Assembly (NCBI GenBank): GCA_964490125.1
Contig: CAZBAJ010000001.1
Span: forward strand, 67,573 to 131,572
Source of the DNA: an uncultured Candidatus Saccharibacteria bacterium
Lineage (GTDB): Bacteria; Patescibacteriota; WWE3; UBA101185; UBA10185
Reading direction: 5' to 3'
DNA: 64,000 bases
This document shows positions 1,572 through 53,584 of this stretch, in pieces. Under the pieces are notes generated by a model. It made no database searches, was not told where the DNA came from, and saw nothing but the letters and a program-made list of their open reading frames with translations. A program made the translations under genes and the position numbers. Each line of letters starts with the position of its first letter. The first letter of the stretch is position 1.

Positions 1572-2111
1572 CTAAAAAGCCTTGGGCTTAAAGCCTTTGG
1601 GATTTAGAACTTTAAAGTGCTTGTTTTTCTGCGTTAAAACAAACAAACCGCTATTTTGAGCCTTTTCGGCAAAGTCGCTTGTAACAGTCATACCAGCTAT
1701 TCCGCCTAGTACTTGATAATTTTGGTAGTTTGGGAAGGATGATTTGAATAGTGGTAATTTTCTGCCTACAAAATCATTTAAATCGTTGATATGTGGCTTT
1801 TGTTTGACTTCCAGTACTGCTACAACTTTGCCGTTTGTTAGTACTATATCCCACTCGTTTCTTTGTGGGTCTCTTACATTTTTTGCTACGGTGTCAAATT
1901 TTATACCGTTAAGTTGTTTTTGAGTTTCTAGCCCCGTGTAAAAATAATCTTCGGCTACCTGTCCGATATTATTAGAAATGTTCCCATAGTCAGTAGTAAC
2001 CCTTTTTACCTCTGCGCTAAGTTCCTTTATTGCCATATCACGCTCCTTGGCGCTTTTGGCAACCTCTTTGACTATATCTTCCAGTGATTTTTTATTTGTC
2101 CTTTGTTTCAC
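1572..2111 (-). CDS. Hypothetical protein with restriction-endonuclease-like (PD-(D/E)XK) signature, paralog 1
   Basis: Motif EWDIVLTNGKVVAVLEVKQK (D...E-V-K); clear paralog of 4055..4549 (shared AEDYFY, NGIKFD, LEVK, GFKPKA C-terminus); apparent GTG start; TTGACT-N17-TAAAAG promoter-like sequence ends 6 nt before the start (leaderless?). Confidence 0.55.
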   Translation of the reverse strand: MKQRTNKKSLEDIVKEVAKSAKERDMAIKELSAEVKRVTTDYGNISNNIGQVAEDYFYTGLETQKQLNGIKFDTVAKNVRDPQRNEWDIVLTNGKVVAVLEVKQKPHINDLNDFVGRKLPLFKSSFPNYQNYQVLGGIAGMTVTSDFAEKAQNSGLFVLTQKNKHFKVLNPKGFKPKAF

Positions 2112-2296
2112 ACTAAACTTTTATCAAAACACTAAACAAAAGTCAATATGACAATTTATGTCTGTGGGATTTACATGCGGGTTTGGGACTCCAGACTTTC
2201 GCTTGCCGTCGGTTTATAAACCGAATAATCTTTTCAGATAACAAGCCCTATTATATTACCATAAAGTGGTGCAATGGGGTGTGCTAAACTTGTCGC

Positions 2297-4051
2297 ATGA
2301 AAAAATGGGTAGTTAGGGAGGTTTACAATCCCGGTGCTAATGTGCTAAATGATTTTAATTCTATTCTCGACTTACTACTACAAAATCGGGGGATCGACGA
2401 AAATTTACGCCAGGAATTTCTAAATCCATTACATATTTCAGAGTATCTAAAGAAATTGCGGAGCGACTTTAAGGAGTCGCTCAAACAAGCGCGCGATGAG
2501 ATTACCAACGCTATAAATCAAAGTCGTCCAATAATAATTCACGGCGACTACGATGCGGATGGGATTTGCGCTACCGCCATTTTGTACAAAACCCTCACAG
2601 AAACACTCGGTTACAAAAAAGTGGCTTATTTTATACCCAATCGATTTGACCAGGGCTACGGGCTTTCCGCGGATTCGGTTAAGGAAATGGACGACTTAGT
2701 GAATGGCCGATTTGGTTTAATAGATGATGTCGATAATAAAGCTGGCAAAAGGGTCGTCCTGCATAAAAACAAGTCAAACGAACCAACCGCTCTTATTATA
2801 ACGGTGGATTGTGGGATAACCGCGGAGGAGGCAGTTTTGCAACAGGCGCGCGACTTAGGTTTTAAAATTATTATAACCGACCACCACCAAAAGCAGGAAT
2901 CTCTACCCCAATCGGATGTTTTGCTTTGGAACGACCAGATGGTAGGCGCTAGTGCTGCGCTAATGTTGGCGCTTGTTTTGGGCTTGCGAGATGAGCAATT
3001 ACTTTGTTTGGCGGGCATTGCCACCGTGACGGATTTAATCCCGCTTAAAGGGTTTAATCGGGCGTTGGTTAAAAAGTCGCTTGCGATTTTAAATACCAAC
3101 CCACCTTTGGGAATAAAAACGCTCATCGATGTTGCTGGTAGATCTAACGGTGAGCTTGGGGTGTACGACCTGGGTTACATAATCGGTCCTCGTCTTAATG
3201 CCTCAGGTCGATTGGATTCAGCTTACGAGTCGCTAAAATTACTGTTGGAAAATGACAAAAAAGAAGTCGCCCAAATTGCCCAAAAACTTAACGCAGTAAA
3301 TTTAGAGCGCCAGGAAATGACCCAAAAAATGTACGACTTGGCGGAGCGCCTTTACATAGAAGATGCCGGACGCAACAAGCAGAAAATAATTATCGTAGTT
3401 TCTGAAAACTTTCATGAGGGTGTTATTGGTTTGGTGGCAGGTAAGTTGGCACAAAAATATGCTAAGCCCACAATTGCTATAAGCATTAATGGAGAAATGG
3501 CAAAAGGTTCGGTGCGGTCTGTGGCTGGTGTAAATATTATAGAATTTTTGCGACATTTTGGAGACCGGTTTACTAGTTTAGGCGGACATCCTATGGCGGC
3601 GGGTTTTTCTGTTAAAAAAGTCGACCTGACTAAACTTACAGAGGACTTATACAACTACGCGCAGGAAACCATTTCTGACGATGTTTTAGTCCCGCAACTT
3701 ACTGTGGATTTAGAATTGCCGATTGCACAAATAAGTAGCGATTTATTAAAGCAGGTCGACCAGTTAAAACCGTATGGAATAGGTAACCCGGAACCGCTCT
3801 TTCTGTCACGGAAGGTTGGTGTTGCCGGATGCGATTTTGTCGGCAAAGAGGGCTCCCATTTGTCGCTCAAACTTTTTGACGGACAAACCACCTACAAAGC
3901 CGTTATGTTTGACGCCAAAAATTTGGGAATTTCCGGCTTTAACTTGGGCGACAAACTAGATATCGTCTACACCGCGTCGCTTAAAGATTACAACGGAAAA
4001 ACCTACACGGATTTAGTTATTAAGGATTTTGCTATTTCGTTGCAAGGTTAA
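2297..4051 (+). CDS. recJ: Single-stranded-DNA-specific exonuclease RecJ
   Basis: DHH motif region IIIHGDYDADGICATAIL, DHHQ, DHHA1-like GGHPMAAG; 584 aa. Confidence 0.9.
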   Translation: MKKWVVREVYNPGANVLNDFNSILDLLLQNRGIDENLRQEFLNPLHISEYLKKLRSDFKESLKQARDEITNAINQSRPIIIHGDYDADGICATAILYKTLTETLGYKKVAYFIPNRFDQGYGLSADSVKEMDDLVNGRFGLIDDVDNKAGKRVVLHKNKSNEPTALIITVDCGITAEEAVLQQARDLGFKIIITDHHQKQESLPQSDVLLWNDQMVGASAALMLALVLGLRDEQLLCLAGIATVTDLIPLKGFNRALVKKSLAILNTNPPLGIKTLIDVAGRSNGELGVYDLGYIIGPRLNASGRLDSAYESLKLLLENDKKEVAQIAQKLNAVNLERQEMTQKMYDLAERLYIEDAGRNKQKIIIVVSENFHEGVIGLVAGKLAQKYAKPTIAISINGEMAKGSVRSVAGVNIIEFLRHFGDRFTSLGGHPMAAGFSVKKVDLTKLTEDLYNYAQETISDDVLVPQLTVDLELPIAQISSDLLKQVDQLKPYGIGNPEPLFLSRKVGVAGCDFVGKEGSHLSLKLFDGQTTYKAVMFDAKNLGISGFNLGDKLDIVYTASLKDYNGKTYTDLVIKDFAISLQG

Positions 4052-4054
4052 GAT

Positions 4055-4549
4055 CTAGTACGCTTTTGGTTTAAAACCTTCTGAATTTAGCACTCTAAAG
4101 TTTACGCCGTCCTGCGTCAACACAGAAAGCCCGTATTTCTCCGCTTCCTTCATGCTGTCTTTTGGCACTGCCATACCTGCTACACCGCCATAGACATGAA
4201 AATTTGAAAAACCTGGTACAGTTTGTTTAAAAAGGGGCAGTTTTTGTGTGGCAAAATCCTCTACATCTTTAGGATGAAGCTTGTGTTTAACTTCTAAAAC
4301 CGCTACCGAATTACCGTTTTTCAGCACAATATCCCATTCAAGGTCGTTAAACCCGCCAAAATTTTTGGCTACATCGTCATATTTAATTCCGTTTAATACT
4401 TTTTTATGCTTAAGCGCGGAGTAAAAATACTCTTCAGCCACATCACCCAAATTGTTTCCTATTCCACCCATTCTTTGCATAGCTTTTTCTACATAGGCGT
4501 CAAGTTCCGCTAATGCACGACTCCGTTTGGTTGACGAGGGTTTTTTCAT
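4055..4549 (-). CDS. Hypothetical PD-(D/E)XK-like protein, paralog 2
   Basis: EWDIVLKNGNSVAVLEVKHK motif; paralog of 1572..2111; TTGACA-N17-TATTAA on minus strand ends 6 nt before ATG, no SD (leaderless?). Confidence 0.55.
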   Translation of the reverse strand: MKKPSSTKRSRALAELDAYVEKAMQRMGGIGNNLGDVAEEYFYSALKHKKVLNGIKYDDVAKNFGGFNDLEWDIVLKNGNSVAVLEVKHKLHPKDVEDFATQKLPLFKQTVPGFSNFHVYGGVAGMAVPKDSMKEAEKYGLSVLTQDGVNFRVLNSEGFKPKAY

Positions 4550-4624
4550 AAGGATTTAATATCAAAAATCACTTCTAGTGTCAATACGACAATTTATGTC
4601 TATGGGATGTAGATAAGGGTTTGG

Positions 4625-4710
4625 GACTCCAGAGAGAGAGAGTTAAATGTGCATCACCGTCCGTGGACGATGTTGTCGTTTTAACCTCCTCTCCCTGGAG
4701 TCTTTTTTTT
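4625..4710 (+). terminator. Conserved structured hairpin (about 23-bp imperfect stem; arms GACTCCAGAGAGAGAGAGTTAAA / TTTAACCTCCTCTCCCTGGAGTC) followed by T8; copy b of a repeated element
   Basis: Inverted repeat read directly; on the minus-strand RNA the A-C mismatches become G-U wobbles (stronger fold); T8 on plus strand overlaps the stop codon of the convergent small ORF. Confidence 0.6.
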
Positions 4711-4888
4711 ACGAAAACAGCACCTCCACGATAGCGTGGGCTATCCACACAATCAGCGCCACGATTACGAGGAAAAACAACAGCCCCATCACTAGGGCCG
4801 CCCACCATTCCTCGGCCAATATCCCCAGGAACAGGGTGACCCCCAGTCCCGTGAGGACAACTTTCAACAGAAATTTGAACACCGACAT
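4709..4888 (-). CDS. Small two-TM hydrophobic peptide (60 aa, MSVFKFLLKVVLTGLGVTLFLGILAEEWWAALVMGLLFFLVIVALIVWIAHAIVEVLFS)
   Basis: SD GAGGGAGG 6 nt upstream of ATG 4888; TTGTAC-N17-TATAAT promoter on minus strand; markedly GC-rich relative to surroundings; paralog-like to 8075..8239. Confidence 0.55.
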   Translation of the reverse strand: MSVFKFLLKVVLTGLGVTLFLGILAEEWWAALVMGLLFFLVIVALIVWIAHAIVEVLFS

Positions 4889-4983
4889 CTTATCCTCCCT
4901 CGACCCAGAGTTGTTTGTCAACGATGCCTATAATTATAACATGTATTGTTGACTTGTACAAAATATTGGTTTATGTTAGACTC

Positions 4984-5254
4984 CTTACAGTCGCAAAGAT
5001 CCGGCAAACACCGGGGAGCATGGGGAAGAAAGTCCTGTTGAAGGAAGGACGCTGGAAAGTGTCGCCTAAATCCGTCAACCAAGATAAGTAGAACCCCACG
5101 GGAAAGCCCGTTACAGATTAAATCCAGTCGGCAAGAAACCGGAGGGATGCAAAGGTTTGGGTGGAAACACTCAAGCAAAATGAGGTGGCAACGCGGTAAA
5201 ACGCCCTCATGAGATTGTCAAATTAATTTTGGCGGTTTTGTGAGGGCATTTTTT
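4984..5254 (+). promoter_or_regulatory. T-box riboswitch leader (Asp/Asn) with intrinsic terminator
   Basis: Promoter TTGACT(4949)-N17-TATGTT; T-box-like AAATGAGGTGGCAACGCGG (UGGC would pair with a G73 tRNA: Asp/Asn); terminator GCCCTCAT...GTGAGGGC + T6 at 5203-5254; directly upstream of class IIb aaRS gene. Confidence 0.6.
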
Positions 5255-6586: not shown

Positions 6587-6607
6587 GTTTAAGGCCGTTG
6601 CGACAAT

Positions 6608-6631
6608 AAATTCTATTCAGATTAGAGACAA
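6608..6631 (+). promoter_or_regulatory. Conserved 24-nt motif AAATTCTATTCAGATTAGAGACAA, copy 1, immediately upstream of TTGTCA -35-like hexamer
   Basis: Near-identical copies at 10987..11010 and 53438..53461, each just after or overlapping a stop codon and 1-6 nt upstream of a -35-like hexamer. Confidence 0.5.
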
Positions 6632-6682
6632 CTATCTTGTCAAGTGTATTTTTTAGTGTAATCTTCCCCGCAGGTGGACCAT

Positions 6683-7970: not shown

Positions 7971-7997
7971 GATTGGACGGATCTGGAAACTAGAACG

Positions 7998-8076
7998 GGA
8001 TTCCAGAGAGAGAGAGTTAAATGTGCGACAAGATGTTGTCGTCGGTTTAACCTCCTCTCTCCGGAGTCTTTTTTTT
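7998..8076 (+). terminator. Conserved structured hairpin + T8, copy c of repeated element (arms GATTCCAGAGAGAGAGAGTTAAA / TTTAACCTCCTCTCTCCGGAGTC)
   Basis: Same arms and shared loop words (TGTGC, GATGTTGTCGT) as copy at 4625..4710; follows dac stop; T8 overlaps stop codon of convergent small ORF. Confidence 0.6.
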
Positions 8077-8239
8077 ATTTCTCCTTCTCCTTCTGCCAAA
8101 ACTTGATGGTGGAAAGGATACAAAGGCCGGCTATGCCGACCAGCAGAGTCGCCTCTAGCCACCGTCGCTGAGATGCGAGCCAGGCTGACTCTATTAGCGC
8201 CGACACCACCAGCGCTAACGCTAAGATATACTTGACCAT
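8075..8239 (-). CDS. Small two-TM hydrophobic peptide (54 aa, MVKYILALALVVSALIESAWLASQRRWLEATLLVGIAGLCILSTIKFWQKEKEK), not in supplied ORF track (<60 aa)
   Basis: Translated by hand from minus strand; SD AGGGAGG 4 nt upstream of ATG; GC-rich; same TM-charged-TM architecture and same placement relative to hairpin as 4709..4888. Confidence 0.5.
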   Translation of the reverse strand: MVKYILALALVVSALIESAWLASQRRWLEATLLVGIAGLCILSTIKFWQKEKEK

Positions 8240-8310
8240 GGTCCCTCCCTGTTTGACTTAGTCGCTTTTCAAAGCTCCGCGGTTATTATAACAAATATAA
8301 GGAGGAAAGT

Positions 8311-9471
8311 CTATTTTGAGGTTGGCGAACCCGTGTTACTTTCTACAGGCAAGATATAGTCGCCGGAGATGGCGGGGTAGTAAACGGTGAGTTGACCCGC
8401 ACCCCCGCCTACTGTCGTGTAATTTCCCTCAAACACATAAATTGGTTGTAAATACTTTTGCAATTTTGGCGTGTCGTAATAAGCCAGGTAGATACTGTTA
8501 ATTAAAATCTTGTCAATTCTTATTGGCACATACGGTTCAAACGGATTGCCGTCCTTTGCCATAATCCCAGCAATTACGCCCTTGTTTTTATTGACTTCCG
8601 CCCACGCCATGGCAACAGAAATTATCGGGTAAGTAGCGTTTTGGTCTTTTTCTTTGTCCACTAATTCCCATTGATACGCCTCCACCTTGGGGAAAATTAA
8701 CTGCTTGTATTTTGTATCTCTCGGCGTTCCTACCCAAACATGTAACAAACCTTTATACGGGTCCGGTCCTAAGATAGGAAAGCTTTTAAAACCTCTAAAA
8801 AAATCCACCCTAACAATTTGCGTTTCGTAGTCAAAGTTTACGGCGTGAATTTCTCCGCCTACATATTTGCCCAAATACGCTTTAGAAGTTCCTGTGTAGT
8901 ACATTTCTCCAAACCGTCCGGCAGAAACTAGCATGTTTCTGGCTTGGTCTGTTGCGGTGTCAGCCTTTAGTCGTCCAGCAATATAATAATTAGCTTTGCC
9001 AAATAATGGTAGATCTAATTTAATTTCCCGGGTTTTAGTATTGACATCAAGTCGCCCGTTAAAAGTAGGATCTACCCATGAATAAATTGGGTCAGTAGTT
9101 TGACTGATAAAACTGTCGTCATAATAACCTAAAATAGCTCCTGTGCGTTGGGCGTTTTTGCCTGCTTCATAGGAAAAAAGTGGTTGACGGAGTCTAAAAA
9201 CGGGCATTTTATTGGGAAAATCTGTGGGAAGACGACCGTTTTTGGTGTTTAAAATGTACTGCGGGTCCGAATTAGTGATTTTTTTGTATTGAAACTCCGG
9301 CGCGTCAATTTTGCCAAAGAGGGTGGTTGGCAGATCTTTTGGCGGATTAATCATGTAGACGAGTTTTTTGACGGGTGCTTTTAGGGTAACAAAGGCTATG
9401 TATAAGCCCAAAACCGCCACTACGGTAAAAAGAATGCGTTTAAATAGAGCAGATGTTTCTACCAAATTCAC
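8311..9471 (-). CDS. Hypothetical membrane-anchored (signal-anchor) secreted-domain protein
   Basis: N-terminal TM helix then 350-aa non-hydrophobic domain; no recognised catalytic motif. Confidence 0.5.
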   Translation of the reverse strand: MNLVETSALFKRILFTVVAVLGLYIAFVTLKAPVKKLVYMINPPKDLPTTLFGKIDAPEFQYKKITNSDPQYILNTKNGRLPTDFPNKMPVFRLRQPLFSYEAGKNAQRTGAILGYYDDSFISQTTDPIYSWVDPTFNGRLDVNTKTREIKLDLPLFGKANYYIAGRLKADTATDQARNMLVSAGRFGEMYYTGTSKAYLGKYVGGEIHAVNFDYETQIVRVDFFRGFKSFPILGPDPYKGLLHVWVGTPRDTKYKQLIFPKVEAYQWELVDKEKDQNATYPIISVAMAWAEVNKNKGVIAGIMAKDGNPFEPYVPIRIDKILINSIYLAYYDTPKLQKYLQPIYVFEGNYTTVGGGAGQLTVYYPAISGDYILPVESNTGSPTSK

Positions 9472-9517
9472 AAATTTATTATAGCAACAAATTGTGCTGG
9501 TGGTGTAAAATGTTGAT

Positions 9518-10999
9518 ATGACCGAAGATACAAAGTTGGTAAAAACTAGGATGGCACCCAGTCCGACCGGAGAGTTTCATATTGGTGGCATGCGTACACT
9601 GCTTTATAACTACGCTTTTGCCAAGAAAAATCACGGTAAATTTCTTTTAAGGATAGAAGACACAGATCGGGAAAGGTTTGTGGAAGGAGCAATAGAAAGG
9701 GCTTACCAGGTGATAAAAGATTACGGTTTGAGTTGGGATGAAGGTCCGTTAGTAGGAGGTCCAAACGAGCCTTATGTTCAGTCACAGAGACTGGACTTGT
9801 ACAAAAAACACGCTTTAGAACTTGTGGAAAAAGGTCACGCTTATTACTGCTTTTGTACAAAGGAGCGACTTGATGAGATGCGTAAGAAGCAACAGCATGA
9901 GCATTTAAGCGTTACAAAGTACGATCGCCATTGTTTGAGTTTGACCTCGGAACAAGTTGCTGAAAATCTAAAAACGGGTGTATCTTATGTTATACGGATG
10001 AAAGTGCCTTCAGACAGGGCGGTTTCTTATGACGATGTGTTTTTGGGGAAAATTGAGGTACCGTCCAACGACATTGAAGATCAGGTATTGTTAAAATCGG
10101 ATGGATTTCCCACCTACCACCTTGCCGTAGTTGTTGACGATCATTTAATGGGCGTTACCCACATTTTGCGCGGTAGAGAGTGGCTTCCATCTACGCCCAA
10201 ACATGTTTTGTTGTATGAGTTTTTTGGTTGGGATATGCCTATAACAGGTCACTTTCCGGTTTTAAAAGAAGTCGGTTCAACTAAAAAAATGTCTAAACGC
10301 TTTGGGGATGTTGCGGCTACGGACTTTCTAAAAAACGGCTACTTGCCCGAGGCGCTTTTAAACTTCATCATGCTTTTGGGCTGGAACCCCGGCACAGAGC
10401 AAGAAGTATTTTCTTTGGAGGAATTTATTAAGGTTTTTTCGCTTGAACGAATTCATAAAACAGATTTAGTGGCTTTTGATAGGGAAAAGTTATTATGGTT
10501 TAACGGTTACTACATCCGCCAACTATCCGATAGCGATCTTTACGAAAAAATATCTGCGTGGGCAAAAAAGTGGGATACAGATTTGAATTTGGAATTAAAG
10601 GATCGGGAGTTTTCCACTAGAATTTTGGCGCTAATAAAGGACAGAATGAAATTACTTAGCGACTTTAAGGAGCTGTCGACCTACTTTTTTGTAGATCCCG
10701 TGGTTGACACCAAAGCATTCTCTAATCATTCTGGAGAAAAATGGCAAGCTATTTTGCAGGGTTTTGAAAAAGCTTTCTCAGAACTTGAAGAAGGCCGTTG
10801 GAATAAGGAAAATCTAGATAAAATATCGCACCAGGTTTTGGAAGAGCAAGGATTTTCACCAAAAGAGGCGTTTATGACCTTGCGTCTTGCCGTTACAGGA
10901 CAAACTGCTACACCGCCACTTTTTGATGTGCTTGAACTTTTGGGAAAAAGAGAGGTGGGGCGCCGTCTTAAAGTCGTCCTACCAACAAATTCTAATTAG
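9518..10999 (+). CDS. gltX: Glutamyl-tRNA synthetase
   Basis: HIGH-class motif PTGEFHIGG and KMSKR; 493 aa. Confidence 0.9.
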   Translation: MTEDTKLVKTRMAPSPTGEFHIGGMRTLLYNYAFAKKNHGKFLLRIEDTDRERFVEGAIERAYQVIKDYGLSWDEGPLVGGPNEPYVQSQRLDLYKKHALELVEKGHAYYCFCTKERLDEMRKKQQHEHLSVTKYDRHCLSLTSEQVAENLKTGVSYVIRMKVPSDRAVSYDDVFLGKIEVPSNDIEDQVLLKSDGFPTYHLAVVVDDHLMGVTHILRGREWLPSTPKHVLLYEFFGWDMPITGHFPVLKEVGSTKKMSKRFGDVAATDFLKNGYLPEALLNFIMLLGWNPGTEQEVFSLEEFIKVFSLERIHKTDLVAFDREKLLWFNGYYIRQLSDSDLYEKISAWAKKWDTDLNLELKDREFSTRILALIKDRMKLLSDFKELSTYFFVDPVVDTKAFSNHSGEKWQAILQGFEKAFSELEEGRWNKENLDKISHQVLEEQGFSPKEAFMTLRLAVTGQTATPPLFDVLELLGKREVGRRLKVVLPTNSN

Positions 11000-11010
11000 A
11001 TTAGAGACAA
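10987..11010 (+). promoter_or_regulatory. 24-nt motif copy 2 (AAATTCTAATTAGATTAGAGACAA) overlapping gltX stop, upstream of recA promoter TTGACA-N17-TACATT
   Basis: Sequence identity to copies 1 and 3. Confidence 0.5.
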
Positions 11011-11071
11011 CTTGTTGACAAAAGTCTCGCGCTGAAATACATTCACACCATAAATTGCAGAAGGAGGAAAT

Positions 11072-51472: not shown

Positions 51473-51748
51473 ATGACTAAACTGTCCAAAATATCAATAG
51501 CGATTTTTAGCTTATCTTTTTTAGTCCAATTAGCTGTGTGCAATCATGTTGCGGTTAAAACCAAAGAGCTTAACACCGTCAACAGCCAAATTTCTGGGCT
51601 TCAAAGTCAAATTTCTGCCATAAATCAAGAAATATATTTAGCATCGTCCATTGTGGGTATGGAGAAAAAAGCCAAAGACCAAGGTTTTGCCTCTATGCAA
51701 GTTCAGGTTAAGACTATTGTAAATCCGACTATTGCTCGGGCGTTTTAG
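51473..51748 (+). CDS. ftsL: Cell division protein FtsL-like (single TM + coiled coil)
   Basis: Size, TM, position between rsmH and ftsI. Confidence 0.5.
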   Translation: MTKLSKISIAIFSLSFLVQLAVCNHVAVKTKELNTVNSQISGLQSQISAINQEIYLASSIVGMEKKAKDQGFASMQVQVKTIVNPTIARAF

Positions 51749-51750
51749 CT

Positions 51751-53439
51751 ATGCACAACCGCTTTACTCTGGTTAAACTTGGGATTATCGTATTGTCGTT
51801 TATTGCGGCATCCCGACTTTTTAGCATTCAAATCTTGTCGCACAAACTATACATAGCCCGCGCCTACGATCAATACGCCAACTTTATAACAATTCCTGCT
51901 AAACGCGGGGAAATTTTAACCTCCGACGGTTATCCTTTGGCGTCAAATCAAGTGTCGTACTTACTTTACGCCGAACCTAAAAAACTTAAAGACAAGCAAA
52001 AACTAATTGACGCGGTGCTGTCTATTTTACCAAAGGAAATTAGTGCAAAGGAAGATGAGCGACTTAAAGAGTTGCTTGACTACAATTTGGCATGGGTGGC
52101 TTTGGAACATAACTTGTCCCCAACTCAAAAAACAACCTTGGAGCAACTAAAGCTAGAAGGAATTGGGTTTGAAGAAGAATCCGTGCGGTTTTATCCGGAA
52201 GGCTCTTTAGCGGCGCATGTTTTGGGTTATGTGGCGGAGCAGGAGGACGGTACACAAGGCGGTTACTATGGTATTGAGGCGGCTTTTAATGGCGACTTAC
52301 AGGGTCGACCAGGCAAAGTAACGGAGGAAAAAGATGCACTAGGTCTTTCTATTTTGACGGGCGGATTTACAAAAGTTCCACCGGTGGACGGCAAGCCAAT
52401 TAGGTTAACCATAGACCGCACTGTGCAGTACATTATAGAAAAAAAGCTTAAGGAGGGTGTAGAAAAGTACGATGCTGGAGACGGCGTGATTATTGTAATG
52501 AATCCCATGGACGGCAGTATTTTGGGCATGGCGACTTATCCGGCATATGATCCTCAAAACATGGATTTTACCGAGCCCGCTGTTTCTGCCGAGTCCGGTA
52601 GAAAGGCGCGTGAGCATAGAAATCTGGCAATTTCGTATTTATATGAGCCGGGTTCCGTAATAAAGCCGTTAACTGTTTCCTCCGCCATAGATTTAGGTTT
52701 AGCGACGCCGGAAACTGCTTATTTCGACCCGGGTTCTGCAGTGTATTCAAATTATACTATTAGAAATTGGGATGGAAAAGCTTTAGGACCCATGAATTTA
52801 ACCACTCTGCTCCAAAAGTCTAACAACATTGGTGCGGCATGGGTAGGACATTTGGTTGGTGCAGACGCACTTTCTACTTATTTTAGAAAATATGGTCTTG
52901 GCGCCCTTTCCGGGGTGGCACTGGAGGGTGAGGAGGCAAGTTTACTTAGGGATTACAAGGAAACTACTGACATTGATCTTGCTACTATGTCCTTTGGACA
53001 GGGAATTTTAGCAACGCCTTTACAGGTGTTAAACGCGTTTAATGCTATTGCAAATGGTGGTATTTTGTATCGCCCAAAAATTGTAGCGGACACGGAGCCA
53101 AAAGAGCTTGGTAGAGTAATAAAAAAAGAGACTTCCAATACTATGATAGATATGCTAATAAAAGCGGTGGACGGTGGGGAGTCAAAATACTTTAATATTA
53201 AAAACTATGTAGTGGCGGGCAAAACGGGTACTGCGCAAATTGCAGTTGCCGGTGGTTACGATCCGCATAAAACTAACGCCACATTTGTGGGCTTTTTGCC
53301 CGCCACCAAAAGATTTTCTATGATAGTTAAGTTGCGAGAACCCCAAACAAGTATTTACGCGGCAGAGACTGCCGTCCCTCTTTGGATGGAGACGGCCGGC
53401 GAGCTGGCAAAGTACTATTCTATCCCGTCAGATAAATAA
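51751..53439 (+). CDS. ftsI: Peptidoglycan D,D-transpeptidase FtsI (class B PBP)
   Basis: SVIKP (SXXK), SNN (SXN), KTGT motifs; N-terminal TM. Confidence 0.85.
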   Translation: MHNRFTLVKLGIIVLSFIAASRLFSIQILSHKLYIARAYDQYANFITIPAKRGEILTSDGYPLASNQVSYLLYAEPKKLKDKQKLIDAVLSILPKEISAKEDERLKELLDYNLAWVALEHNLSPTQKTTLEQLKLEGIGFEEESVRFYPEGSLAAHVLGYVAEQEDGTQGGYYGIEAAFNGDLQGRPGKVTEEKDALGLSILTGGFTKVPPVDGKPIRLTIDRTVQYIIEKKLKEGVEKYDAGDGVIIVMNPMDGSILGMATYPAYDPQNMDFTEPAVSAESGRKAREHRNLAISYLYEPGSVIKPLTVSSAIDLGLATPETAYFDPGSAVYSNYTIRNWDGKALGPMNLTTLLQKSNNIGAAWVGHLVGADALSTYFRKYGLGALSGVALEGEEASLLRDYKETTDIDLATMSFGQGILATPLQVLNAFNAIANGGILYRPKIVADTEPKELGRVIKKETSNTMIDMLIKAVDGGESKYFNIKNYVVAGKTGTAQIAVAGGYDPHKTNATFVGFLPATKRFSMIVKLREPQTSIYAAETAVPLWMETAGELAKYYSIPSDK

Positions 53440-53461
53440 ATTCTATTCAGATTAGAGACAA
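53438..53461 (+). promoter_or_regulatory. 24-nt motif copy 3 (AAATTCTATTCAGATTAGAGACAA) directly after ftsI stop, upstream of TTGCAA hexamer
   Basis: Identity to copy 1. Confidence 0.5.
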
Positions 53462-53584
53462 GTGTATTGCAATGTTATTACTTTTGGTAATAATGGTGTC
53501 AGTCATAATTTTGCTAGGCAAGCCGGTAAGTTTGCATCTTAAGTGAGTGGGTACGGTTGCTACTATGCCGGCTTGTTATATATG

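Follow-up and report, generated by a model that had tools for sequence, protein, structure and literature searches.

Coiled-coil-stalk PD-(D/E)XK endonucleases (DUF3782 and PDDEXK_10) consist of an N-terminal helical stalk and a head (Hartmann et al., 2016, PMC4786415). In NucS/EndoMS the C-terminal nuclease domain (PDB entries 2vld and 5gke) is combined with a DNA-binding domain at the N-terminus and a clamp-binding tail, and the CARF-nuclease effectors of the Card1/Can2/Csx1 type carry a CARF sensor. For Mycobacterium tuberculosis, an extensive leaderless transcriptome is described in the passage of PMC12641261 that cites Cortes et al. (2013). Here, we describe two genes for small nuclease-like proteins (copies A and B), together with the DNA upstream of each, in a 64 000-nucleotide stretch of contig CAZBAJ010000001.1 from an uncultured Candidatus Saccharibacteria bacterium; the whole stretch is referred to as the window and its features are collected in Table 1. 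The interpretation that we favour, and regard as fairly probable, is that these paralogues have their own leaderless promoter and upstream regulatory blocks, and that the hairpin and small gene beyond them form a separate, swappable slot.

The two proteins were aligned with BLASTP (83 of 160 residues identical, E = 2e-57). In an alignment of 13 close homologues, E39, E71-W-D73, E86-V-K88, K90, H92 and T145-Q146 were invariant; among 62 distant members E39 and D73 were still invariant and K88 was at least 90% conserved. The PD-(D/E)XK signature is present, with E on helix 1, D on strand 2 and (D/E)xK on strand 3. A model of copy B was obtained with AlphaFold2 (AF2) from the 13-homologue alignment, with a predicted local distance difference test (pLDDT) score of 84.8. 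It has a long helix at the N-terminus (residues 6-49) and then a beta-beta-beta-alpha-beta-alpha-beta core (strands 59-65, 71-78, 81-90 and 118-127; helix 93-110), and it contains the alpha-beta-beta-beta-alpha-beta core of the PD-(D/E)XK superfamily. The top matches in a Foldseek search against the PDB were NucS/EndoMS, Card1, Can2, the small subunit of R.BspD6I and SfsA (probability 0.99-1.0), all of which are PD-(D/E)XK nucleases. An earlier note on this DNA had described the genes as PD-(D/E)XK-like paralogues; the sequence identity, predicted fold and structural matches bear this out, and the absence of a nuclease fold, which the note had named as a possible objection, is not what the AF2 model and Foldseek indicate. 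Copies A and B are diverged paralogues; the family to which they belong is uncharacterised and comprises small stand-alone proteins, predicted PD-(D/E)XK nucleases, found in Patescibacteria. The ratio of nonsynonymous to synonymous substitution (dN/dS) was 0.04-0.18 for both window copies (about 0.04 for copy B against locus L032), and both are under purifying selection.

Sequence searches with the window proteins in Pfam, NCBIfam, PADLOC, PHROGs and the PDB gave nothing above a curated threshold; PDDEXK_10 (PF07788) scored 13.3 bits, below its gathering cut-off of 21.2, and DUF3782 (PF12644) gave no match. A profile search of 1.84 billion cluster representatives retrieved 3052 proteins at E <= 1e-3, most of them with a longer N-terminal extension than the window proteins. 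When 62 members were scanned, weak matches were obtained to Card1_endonuc (9), NERD (6), DUF3782 (5) and PDDEXK_10 (3). Because these matches are few and weak, the family is placed, as a branch that has no model of its own, near the 'coiled-coil stalk + PD-(D/E)XK head' endonucleases (Hartmann et al., 2016, PMC4786415), whose architecture resembles that of the window proteins, the stalk of the latter being short. The distant member P0020 is a solitary gene. The nuclease domain of NucS/EndoMS gave the best structural matches and has the same core with D...ExK, at 11-21% identity to the window proteins and with no sequence-level match to PDB chains; unlike NucS/EndoMS, the window proteins (164-179 residues) have the N-terminal helix only. 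The CARF-associated PD-(D/E)XK domains of Card1/Can2/Csx1 type were matched over the nuclease part only (TM 0.41-0.48). The family remained below the curated cut-offs of Card1_endonuc and of the PADLOC Csx1/CARF_PDDEXK models, and the window proteins have neither a CARF domain nor a CRISPR context. They are new members of a known superfamily, with a previously undescribed cis-element.

That element was examined in related loci (L004-L013, L021, L029, L032, L037 and L046-L053) gathered by exact-protein look-ups and pattern scans. The genome matches were metagenome-assembled genomes of Patescibacteria/Saccharibacteria type, and promoters and blocks were compared in 16 related loci from Patescibacteria metagenomes. 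A sigma70-type promoter is common to the loci, with TTGACA, a 17-bp spacer ending in TTTTTGA and a TG-extended TATTAA-like box (the unit TTGACA/TGATATTAA). The distance from the -10 box to the start codon is exactly 6 nt in copies A (GTG, 2109-2111) and B (ATG, 4547-4549) and in 14 related loci (L007 A/B, L009, L012, L029, L032, L046, L048 A/B, L050-L053 and L004); in L011 it is 7 nt. Orthologues of copy A in L012, L048 and L053 have the same promoter geometry, but start with ATG. No Shine-Dalgarno (SD) or GGAG-like motif precedes copy A or B, and GGAGG is present before recA and the small peptides in the window. The two open reading frames (ORFs) cannot begin further upstream, since in-frame stop codons lie within both -10 boxes. 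Since the -10 box ends 6 nt before the start codon, transcription would start at its A or G (predicted at 4549 for copy B), and the mRNAs of both copies are probably leaderless. The pattern is that of leaderless genes, with a -10 box 5-8 nt before the start, no SD and conservation in orthologues, and the duplicated promoter and leaderless-looking start put forward in the earlier note are upheld by this comparison of sequences. As far as the M. tuberculosis mRNAs are described in the passage mentioned above, they likewise have a -10 box about 6-7 nt before ATG/GTG and no SD, an arrangement that is predicted here. Each nuclease gene carries its own conserved expression module, comprising a near-consensus -35 box, a 17-bp T-tract spacer and a TG-extended -10 box. 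For copy A a gene caller had placed the start at an internal ATG with an apparent SD (154 residues). This start was rejected because the 25 residues upstream are conserved as protein in the L012 and L048 orthologues, which have ATG at the position of the GTG; the internal ATG is a K-to-M substitution, the L012 codon being AAG.

Within the window, a TAnnnT box occurs 5-8 nt before the first ATG/GTG of 15 of 53 ORFs, the frequency at internal ATG/GTG codons being 7.8% (p about 9e-6); starts of the leaderless type are frequent in this genome and are no special feature of the nuclease genes. Examples are recJ (2282-2299), gltX (9500-9520) and the starts at 9471, 17931, 43345, 44013 and 49792. In a crude count, SD-like motifs preceded six of the 53 ORFs and were not enriched. 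A literature search on leaderless transcription in Patescibacteria, the Candidate Phyla Radiation and Saccharibacteria found no such report. To our knowledge, almost no transcription data exist for Patescibacteria.

Upstream of the promoters, the earlier note had pointed to near-identical DNA in front of both genes, and this was confirmed over the 64 kb. The 29-nt pattern GTCAATAYGACAATTTATGTCTRTGGGAT was matched without mismatch at 2142-2170 and 4580-4608 only (none expected in shuffles), and GGGTTTGGGACTCCAGA occurred exactly at 2179-2195 and 4617-4633 only; repeat finding merged both shared stretches into one 93-nt repeat of 74% identity. Over the 86 nt upstream of copies A and B, 62 positions are identical (72%), the blocks nearly completely so, versus 10 of 38 fourfold-degenerate sites in the coding sequences, as expected at random. 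Alignment of nine distinct loci resolved three blocks separated by spacers of variable sequence and fixed length, and the pattern holds in further loci. Block 1 is exact in nine of the fetched loci and near-exact in L005, and its 5' half also forms the base of the hairpin 3' arm. Block 2 has the consensus ATCC(C/T) in conserved columns. Block 3 (consensus GACATAAATTGTCATATTGACA) was found in 14 of the 16 related loci and is AT-rich, with a palindrome TGTCA-N3-TGACA overlapping the -35 box; the window copies form a near-palindrome TGTCR-N3-TGACA, each one base off perfect. Blocks 1-3 are present in L005, L009 and L051, where the hairpin and a same-strand upstream gene are absent, which argues for a role at the DNA level. 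They also accompany the nuclease gene at the mraZ locus of L052. In an exact 20-mer scan of metagenomes, four of 30 matches had the full element and all four lay upstream of members of the nuclease family; the remaining 26 had neither blocks nor a homologous gene and were chance matches. The shared upstream element is therefore neither a dispersed mobile repeat, the objection that the earlier note had foreseen, nor a visible regulon. Blocks 1-3 are best read as a cis-regulatory region belonging to the nuclease family itself, with putative protein-binding DNA. They would be operator or activator sites for a protein, possibly with an UP-element role, and purifying selection would hold them as regulatory sites in the DNA. 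A divergent plus-strand promoter within the element was considered and rejected, the candidate -10 box falling on the least conserved columns.

Table 1. Features of the nuclease loci and genes preceding the hairpins (window coordinates; block positions in the last column as numbered upstream of copy B)
Feature	Coordinates	Strand	Remarks
Nuclease-like gene, copy A	1572-2111	-	179 aa, GTG start; 52% identity to copy B
Promoter A	2112-2146	-	-35 TTGACT 2141-2146; 17 nt; TG-extended -10 TAAAAG 2118-2123
Block 3, copy A	2141-2162	-	pattern match and alignment
Block 2, copy A	2166-2170	-	alignment of nine loci
Block 1, copy A	2180-2194	-	CTGGAGTCCCAAACC
Probable decayed hairpin remnant upstream of copy A	2196-2240	-	aligns to L012 and L029 hairpins
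recJ	2297-4051	+	DHH, DHHA1 and RecJ_OB domains; bracketed by both paralogues
Nuclease-like gene, copy B	4055-4549	-	164 aa, ATG start; AF2 and Foldseek, conserved residues
Promoter B	4550-4584	-	-35 TTGACA 4579-4584; 17-nt spacer with T-tract; TG-extended -10 TATTAA 4556-4561
Block 3, copy B	4579-4600	-	GACATAAATTGTCGTATTGACA; positions -51 to -30
Block 2, copy B	4604-4608	-	ATCCC; positions -59 to -55
Block 1, copy B	4618-4632	-	CTGGAGTCCCAAACC; positions -83 to -69
Long RNA hairpin closing small-gene slot upstream of copy B	4625-4702	-	-44.3 kcal/mol, z -7.4
mp1, small two-transmembrane (2-TM) peptide gene before hairpin	4709-4888	-	59 aa; ATG 4888; SD GGGAGG
Second slot (hairpin 7999-8068, mp2 8075-8239)	7999-8239	-	no nuclease gene downstream
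mp2, gene before hairpin	8075-8239	-	2-TM peptide
Gene before hairpin, L007/L032 B locus			two unrelated soluble ORFs
Gene before hairpin, L012 A locus			Cys-rich 70-aa protein
Gene before hairpin, L048 A locus			Cys-rich 73-aa protein
Gene before hairpin, L029			CxxCxGxG-containing ORF remnant beside transposase fragment
Gene before hairpin, L007 dac locus			different soluble ORF

A covariance model was built from six hairpins. The hairpin upstream of copy B scored 101 bits; the matches were 4617-4711 and 7991-8077 of the window (both on the minus strand) and two hairpins in L007, and the remaining 56 kb of the window yielded no further hairpin. The stems vary only by changes from A-U to G-U, that is A-to-G on the 5' arm opposite U, so pairing is kept solely in minus-strand RNA. 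On the gene strand the hairpin forms an RNA stem-loop at the 3' end of a separately promoted small-gene slot. A search of Rfam 15 with the hairpin and blocks found nothing at gathering score, with one spurious match to a miRNA precursor (E = 0.0095), and a scan of viral contigs with the hairpin 3' arm gave no match.

The small gene before each hairpin has its own strong promoter and SD; for mp1 the promoter is TGTACA-16-TATAAT with TG (4933-4960). Homologues of mp1 that are 93-95% identical occur in L046, L048 and L049, and a 2-TM peptide precedes the hairpin in L046 and L048 also. No homology was found between mp1 and mp2 (E = 0.72), and a database search with mp2 gave no homologue; at the place of mp2, the dac locus of L007 has a hairpin behind an unrelated soluble ORF. 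In L005, L009, L050, L051 and L053 no small gene precedes the nuclease gene. Nucleotide homology between the window and L007 runs through the small-gene promoter, is interrupted past the -10 box and is found again from the stop codon/hairpin onward, so that the small ORF lies in a slot bounded by the conserved promoter and hairpin. The GC content of the cargo is about 50%, compared with 38-45% in the flanks. The slots lie at 4709-4960 and 7999-8313 in the window, 127-216 and 3100-3555 in L007, 1640-2024 in L012 and 8620-8975 in L048; their cargo differs between relatives in which the flanking genes are 82-95% identical. In L029 a transposase-like C-terminal fragment (26-352) lies directly upstream of the slot, and the small ORF is seemingly truncated by it.

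Type I toxin-antitoxin loci, txpA/RatA and bsrG/SR4 for instance, combine a strongly promoted, SD-bearing gene for a small hydrophobic peptide with a large stem-loop on the 3' side. The window slot resembles them, with a T8 on the opposite strand after the hairpin. They differ in that the slot has no conserved antisense promoter, the cargo of relatives is hydrophilic or Cys-rich and the T-run is not conserved; identification of the slot as such a locus was rejected because the cargo ORF is not conserved in kind and a conserved antisense promoter is missing.

Several observations weigh against the favoured interpretation. L050 and L053 lack blocks 1 and 2 and L004 lacks all three, which makes the blocks dispensable in some lineages. 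A search of the 64-kb window for a regulon with the palindrome and block 3 returned the two known sites and near-matches at chance level only. The T at position -7 of a -10 box is usually critical. It is absent from every -10 hexamer of the nuclease promoters (TATTAA, TATTAC, TATACA and TAAAAG), for which reason these promoters may depend on the TG extension or on an activator. After the hairpin there is no U-tract on the sense strand, where the stem is followed by CCCAAACCC (minus strand); the hairpin therefore does not qualify as a canonical intrinsic terminator. Since hairpins exchange apical segments between loci, gene conversion instead of selection could lie behind some of the conservation near block 1. 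The leaderless start itself is a prediction from geometry and conservation, and in the L005 group an ATG is present at the expected position but in a different reading frame from the nuclease gene; slippage, reinitiation or a different start are possible there. In L005 (5990-6060, identical in L006, L010 and L021) this ATG opens a 10-codon ORF only (MEKIKKVREV*), with respect to which the nuclease ORF lies in frame -1 and runs through A-rich tracts (GGAAAAAATCAAAAAAG); four independent assemblies agree.

At the A locus the earlier note had placed a decayed hairpin at 2140-2240. This probably holds for 2196-2240, which can be aligned with the hairpins of L012 and L029, and fails for 2142-2195, which is the promoter-upstream element. 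The remnant retains GGTTTATAAAC and CCGACGG..A.GC; compared with L012 and L029, 15 nt of the 3' arm are deleted. The covariance model found no match in 2196-2240, which is too decayed. Hairpin decay at this position is plausible. L012, L048 and L029 keep an intact hairpin there, from which it follows that the unit at the A locus once had one; the loss of the hairpin proposed in the note agrees with this. The spacer between recJ and copy A is about 185 nt in the window, compared with about 460-470 nt in L012 and L048, and a small ORF and most of the hairpin appear to have been deleted from it. The further suggestion that recJ sits where a peptide gene was lost must be abandoned: recJ is a fixed core gene, located between secF and aspS in all relatives. 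On the minus strand, at about 2250-2258 and thus upstream of the remnant, a TG-extended TAATAT box is similar to the promoter of the L012 small gene and may be an orphan promoter directed toward copy A.

The order small gene, hairpin, promoter and nuclease gene, which the earlier note took as ancestral, does recur (window B, L007/L032 B, L046, L048 B/A, L012 A and L029 A); the succession of small gene, hairpin, blocks and nuclease gene is found at at least seven loci, and mp1 lies upstream of copy B in the window, L046, L048 and L049. From these facts membrane peptide and nuclease might be one two-gene unit (for example toxin/immunity or an effector pair), the hairpin and promoter serving as internal control. 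We regard such a unit as very unlikely. Among relatives the small gene encodes different proteins (2-TM, soluble or Cys-rich) or is absent, mp2 and its hairpin (7999-8239) stand without a nuclease gene, and the small gene and the nuclease gene each have a promoter of their own and differ in translation signal (SD in the former, leaderless in the latter). Their histories are also discordant. Relative to L048, identities are 95% for aspS, 93% for mp1, 69% for nuclease B and 69% for recJ; relative to L007 they are 93% for aspS, 90% for nuclease B and 69% for recJ, the small gene being unrelated. On these grounds the functional link between peptide and nuclease drawn in the note is unsupported. 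Instead, the peptide and nuclease modules are exchanged independently, with the hairpin/block region at the junction. Position A is occupied by non-orthologous family members: window A is 75% identical to L012_A and 50% to L007_A, and L007_A is 74% identical to L004. Given this non-orthologous replacement at one position, the varying copy number and the mosaic inheritance, the nuclease would be an accessory gene of conflict or DNA-processing type rather than a partner of RecJ.

Mosaicism also bears on what the blocks are. The breakpoints of this mosaic region fall between small gene and nuclease gene, and the hairpin and block 1, perhaps with blocks 2 and 3, could be recombination junctions of an exchangeable-cassette system rather than sites of transcription control. 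The non-orthologous members at position A, the replacement of an ORF between conserved promoter and conserved hairpin, the GC content of the cargo and the shuffling of apical hairpin types among loci all suit this idea. We nevertheless consider it unlikely, since ordinary homologous recombination between strains accounts for the mosaicism, blocks 2 and 3 occupy fixed positions relative to the promoter, as is typical of regulatory sites, and just two intact hairpins occur in 64 kb; no recombinase or integrase was evident among the neighbouring genes examined, no search having been aimed at one. The likeness to integron gene cassettes is an analogy only, the window slots carrying their own promoters, unlike typical integron cassettes, and a dif/Xer-like or integron attC nature of block 3 and the hairpin was considered and rejected, no test supporting it. 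If the blocks acted instead as RNA, either as a small-gene 3' untranslated region/Rho-loading region or in an antisense small RNA ending at the hairpin and T8 (plus strand), the T8 after both window hairpins and the C-rich, G-poor minus-strand sequence past the hairpin would be explained. Such a role is improbable in our judgement: the T-run is confined to the window copies and absent in L007, L012 and L029, there is no conserved plus-strand promoter (the candidate -10 box being the most variable part of the element), the blocks are conserved in L005 and L009 without a same-strand upstream transcription unit, and the Rfam search of hairpin and blocks was empty. Recent gene conversion between the paralogues might have left the A/B upstream similarity as a functionless by-product, and hairpin segments do move between loci. 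Against this, the spacer signatures are locus-specific across genomes (CGCAT at the A loci of the window, L007 and L029; CTTAT at the B loci of the window, L007 and L032), the single-copy genomes L005, L009 and L051 have the same block pattern, the adjoining coding sequence is saturated at its synonymous sites and identity is not uniform across blocks and spacers, all of which makes this explanation extremely doubtful. Finally, the region might hold 'expression slots', in each of which a freely replaced, GC-richer small ORF lies between a conserved promoter and a conserved long hairpin that adjoins block 1; small genes and nuclease alleles would be exchanged at the hairpin and blocks, and the nuclease might recognise or cut these sequences and so drive the exchange. 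We give this idea little credence; if true, it would amount to an integrase-less, cassette-like diversification system among Patescibacteria strains. The interpretation retained is that of nuclease paralogues under their own promoter and blocks, with the hairpin outside the nuclease unit and a slot ORF that is replaced between close relatives.

The genes of the window begin with secD (3' part) and secF, followed by copy A, recJ (plus strand), copy B and the long hairpin; then come the small minus-strand peptide gene, a T-box-like leader, aspS and a D-Ala-D-Ala carboxypeptidase gene (dac), and after dac the second hairpin with its peptide gene, gltX and recA. The synteny secD-secF-[A]-recJ-[B]-aspS-dac is kept in L005, L007, L012 and L048. 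Two copies of the nuclease gene are found in the window, L007 and L048, whereas L005 and L009 have a single copy adjoining aspS. A copy by aspS is also present on L050 and L051, short contigs that end before the secF side of recJ. Other contexts of the nuclease gene are L004 and L052 (mraZ) and L011.

The leader upstream of aspS (4987-5211, plus strand) matches the T-box family (Rfam RF00230) with 40 bits and E = 2.3e-6, against a gathering score of 93; a terminator-like hairpin is present at 5203-5247, followed by a T-run. In L005, L009 and L050 there is no T-box-like leader, and aspS has a TGATAAAAT box 7 nt before ATG, of leaderless type. A direct repeat of 76-78% identity that ends in AAATTCTAWTYAGATTAGAGACAAST occurs in three copies (6589-6633, 10968-11012 and 53419-53463, plus strand), the first two just past the stop codons of aspS and gltX and the third overlapping the end of the ORF at 51712-53439. 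Scans of the 64-kb window found no tRNA or tmRNA, and no Rfam 15 family at gathering score.

The apparent 'peptide + nuclease module' is best understood as two modules that evolve independently and happen to lie side by side. The loci provide a sharply defined promoter and leaderless-start architecture for Patescibacteria, validated by comparison between relatives. The conserved cis-element, which covers about 50 bp preceding the -35 box, could serve as bait for a candidate binding protein, and the nuclease family to which it belongs is widespread, with about 3000 clusters at 50% identity and no Pfam or NCBIfam model.

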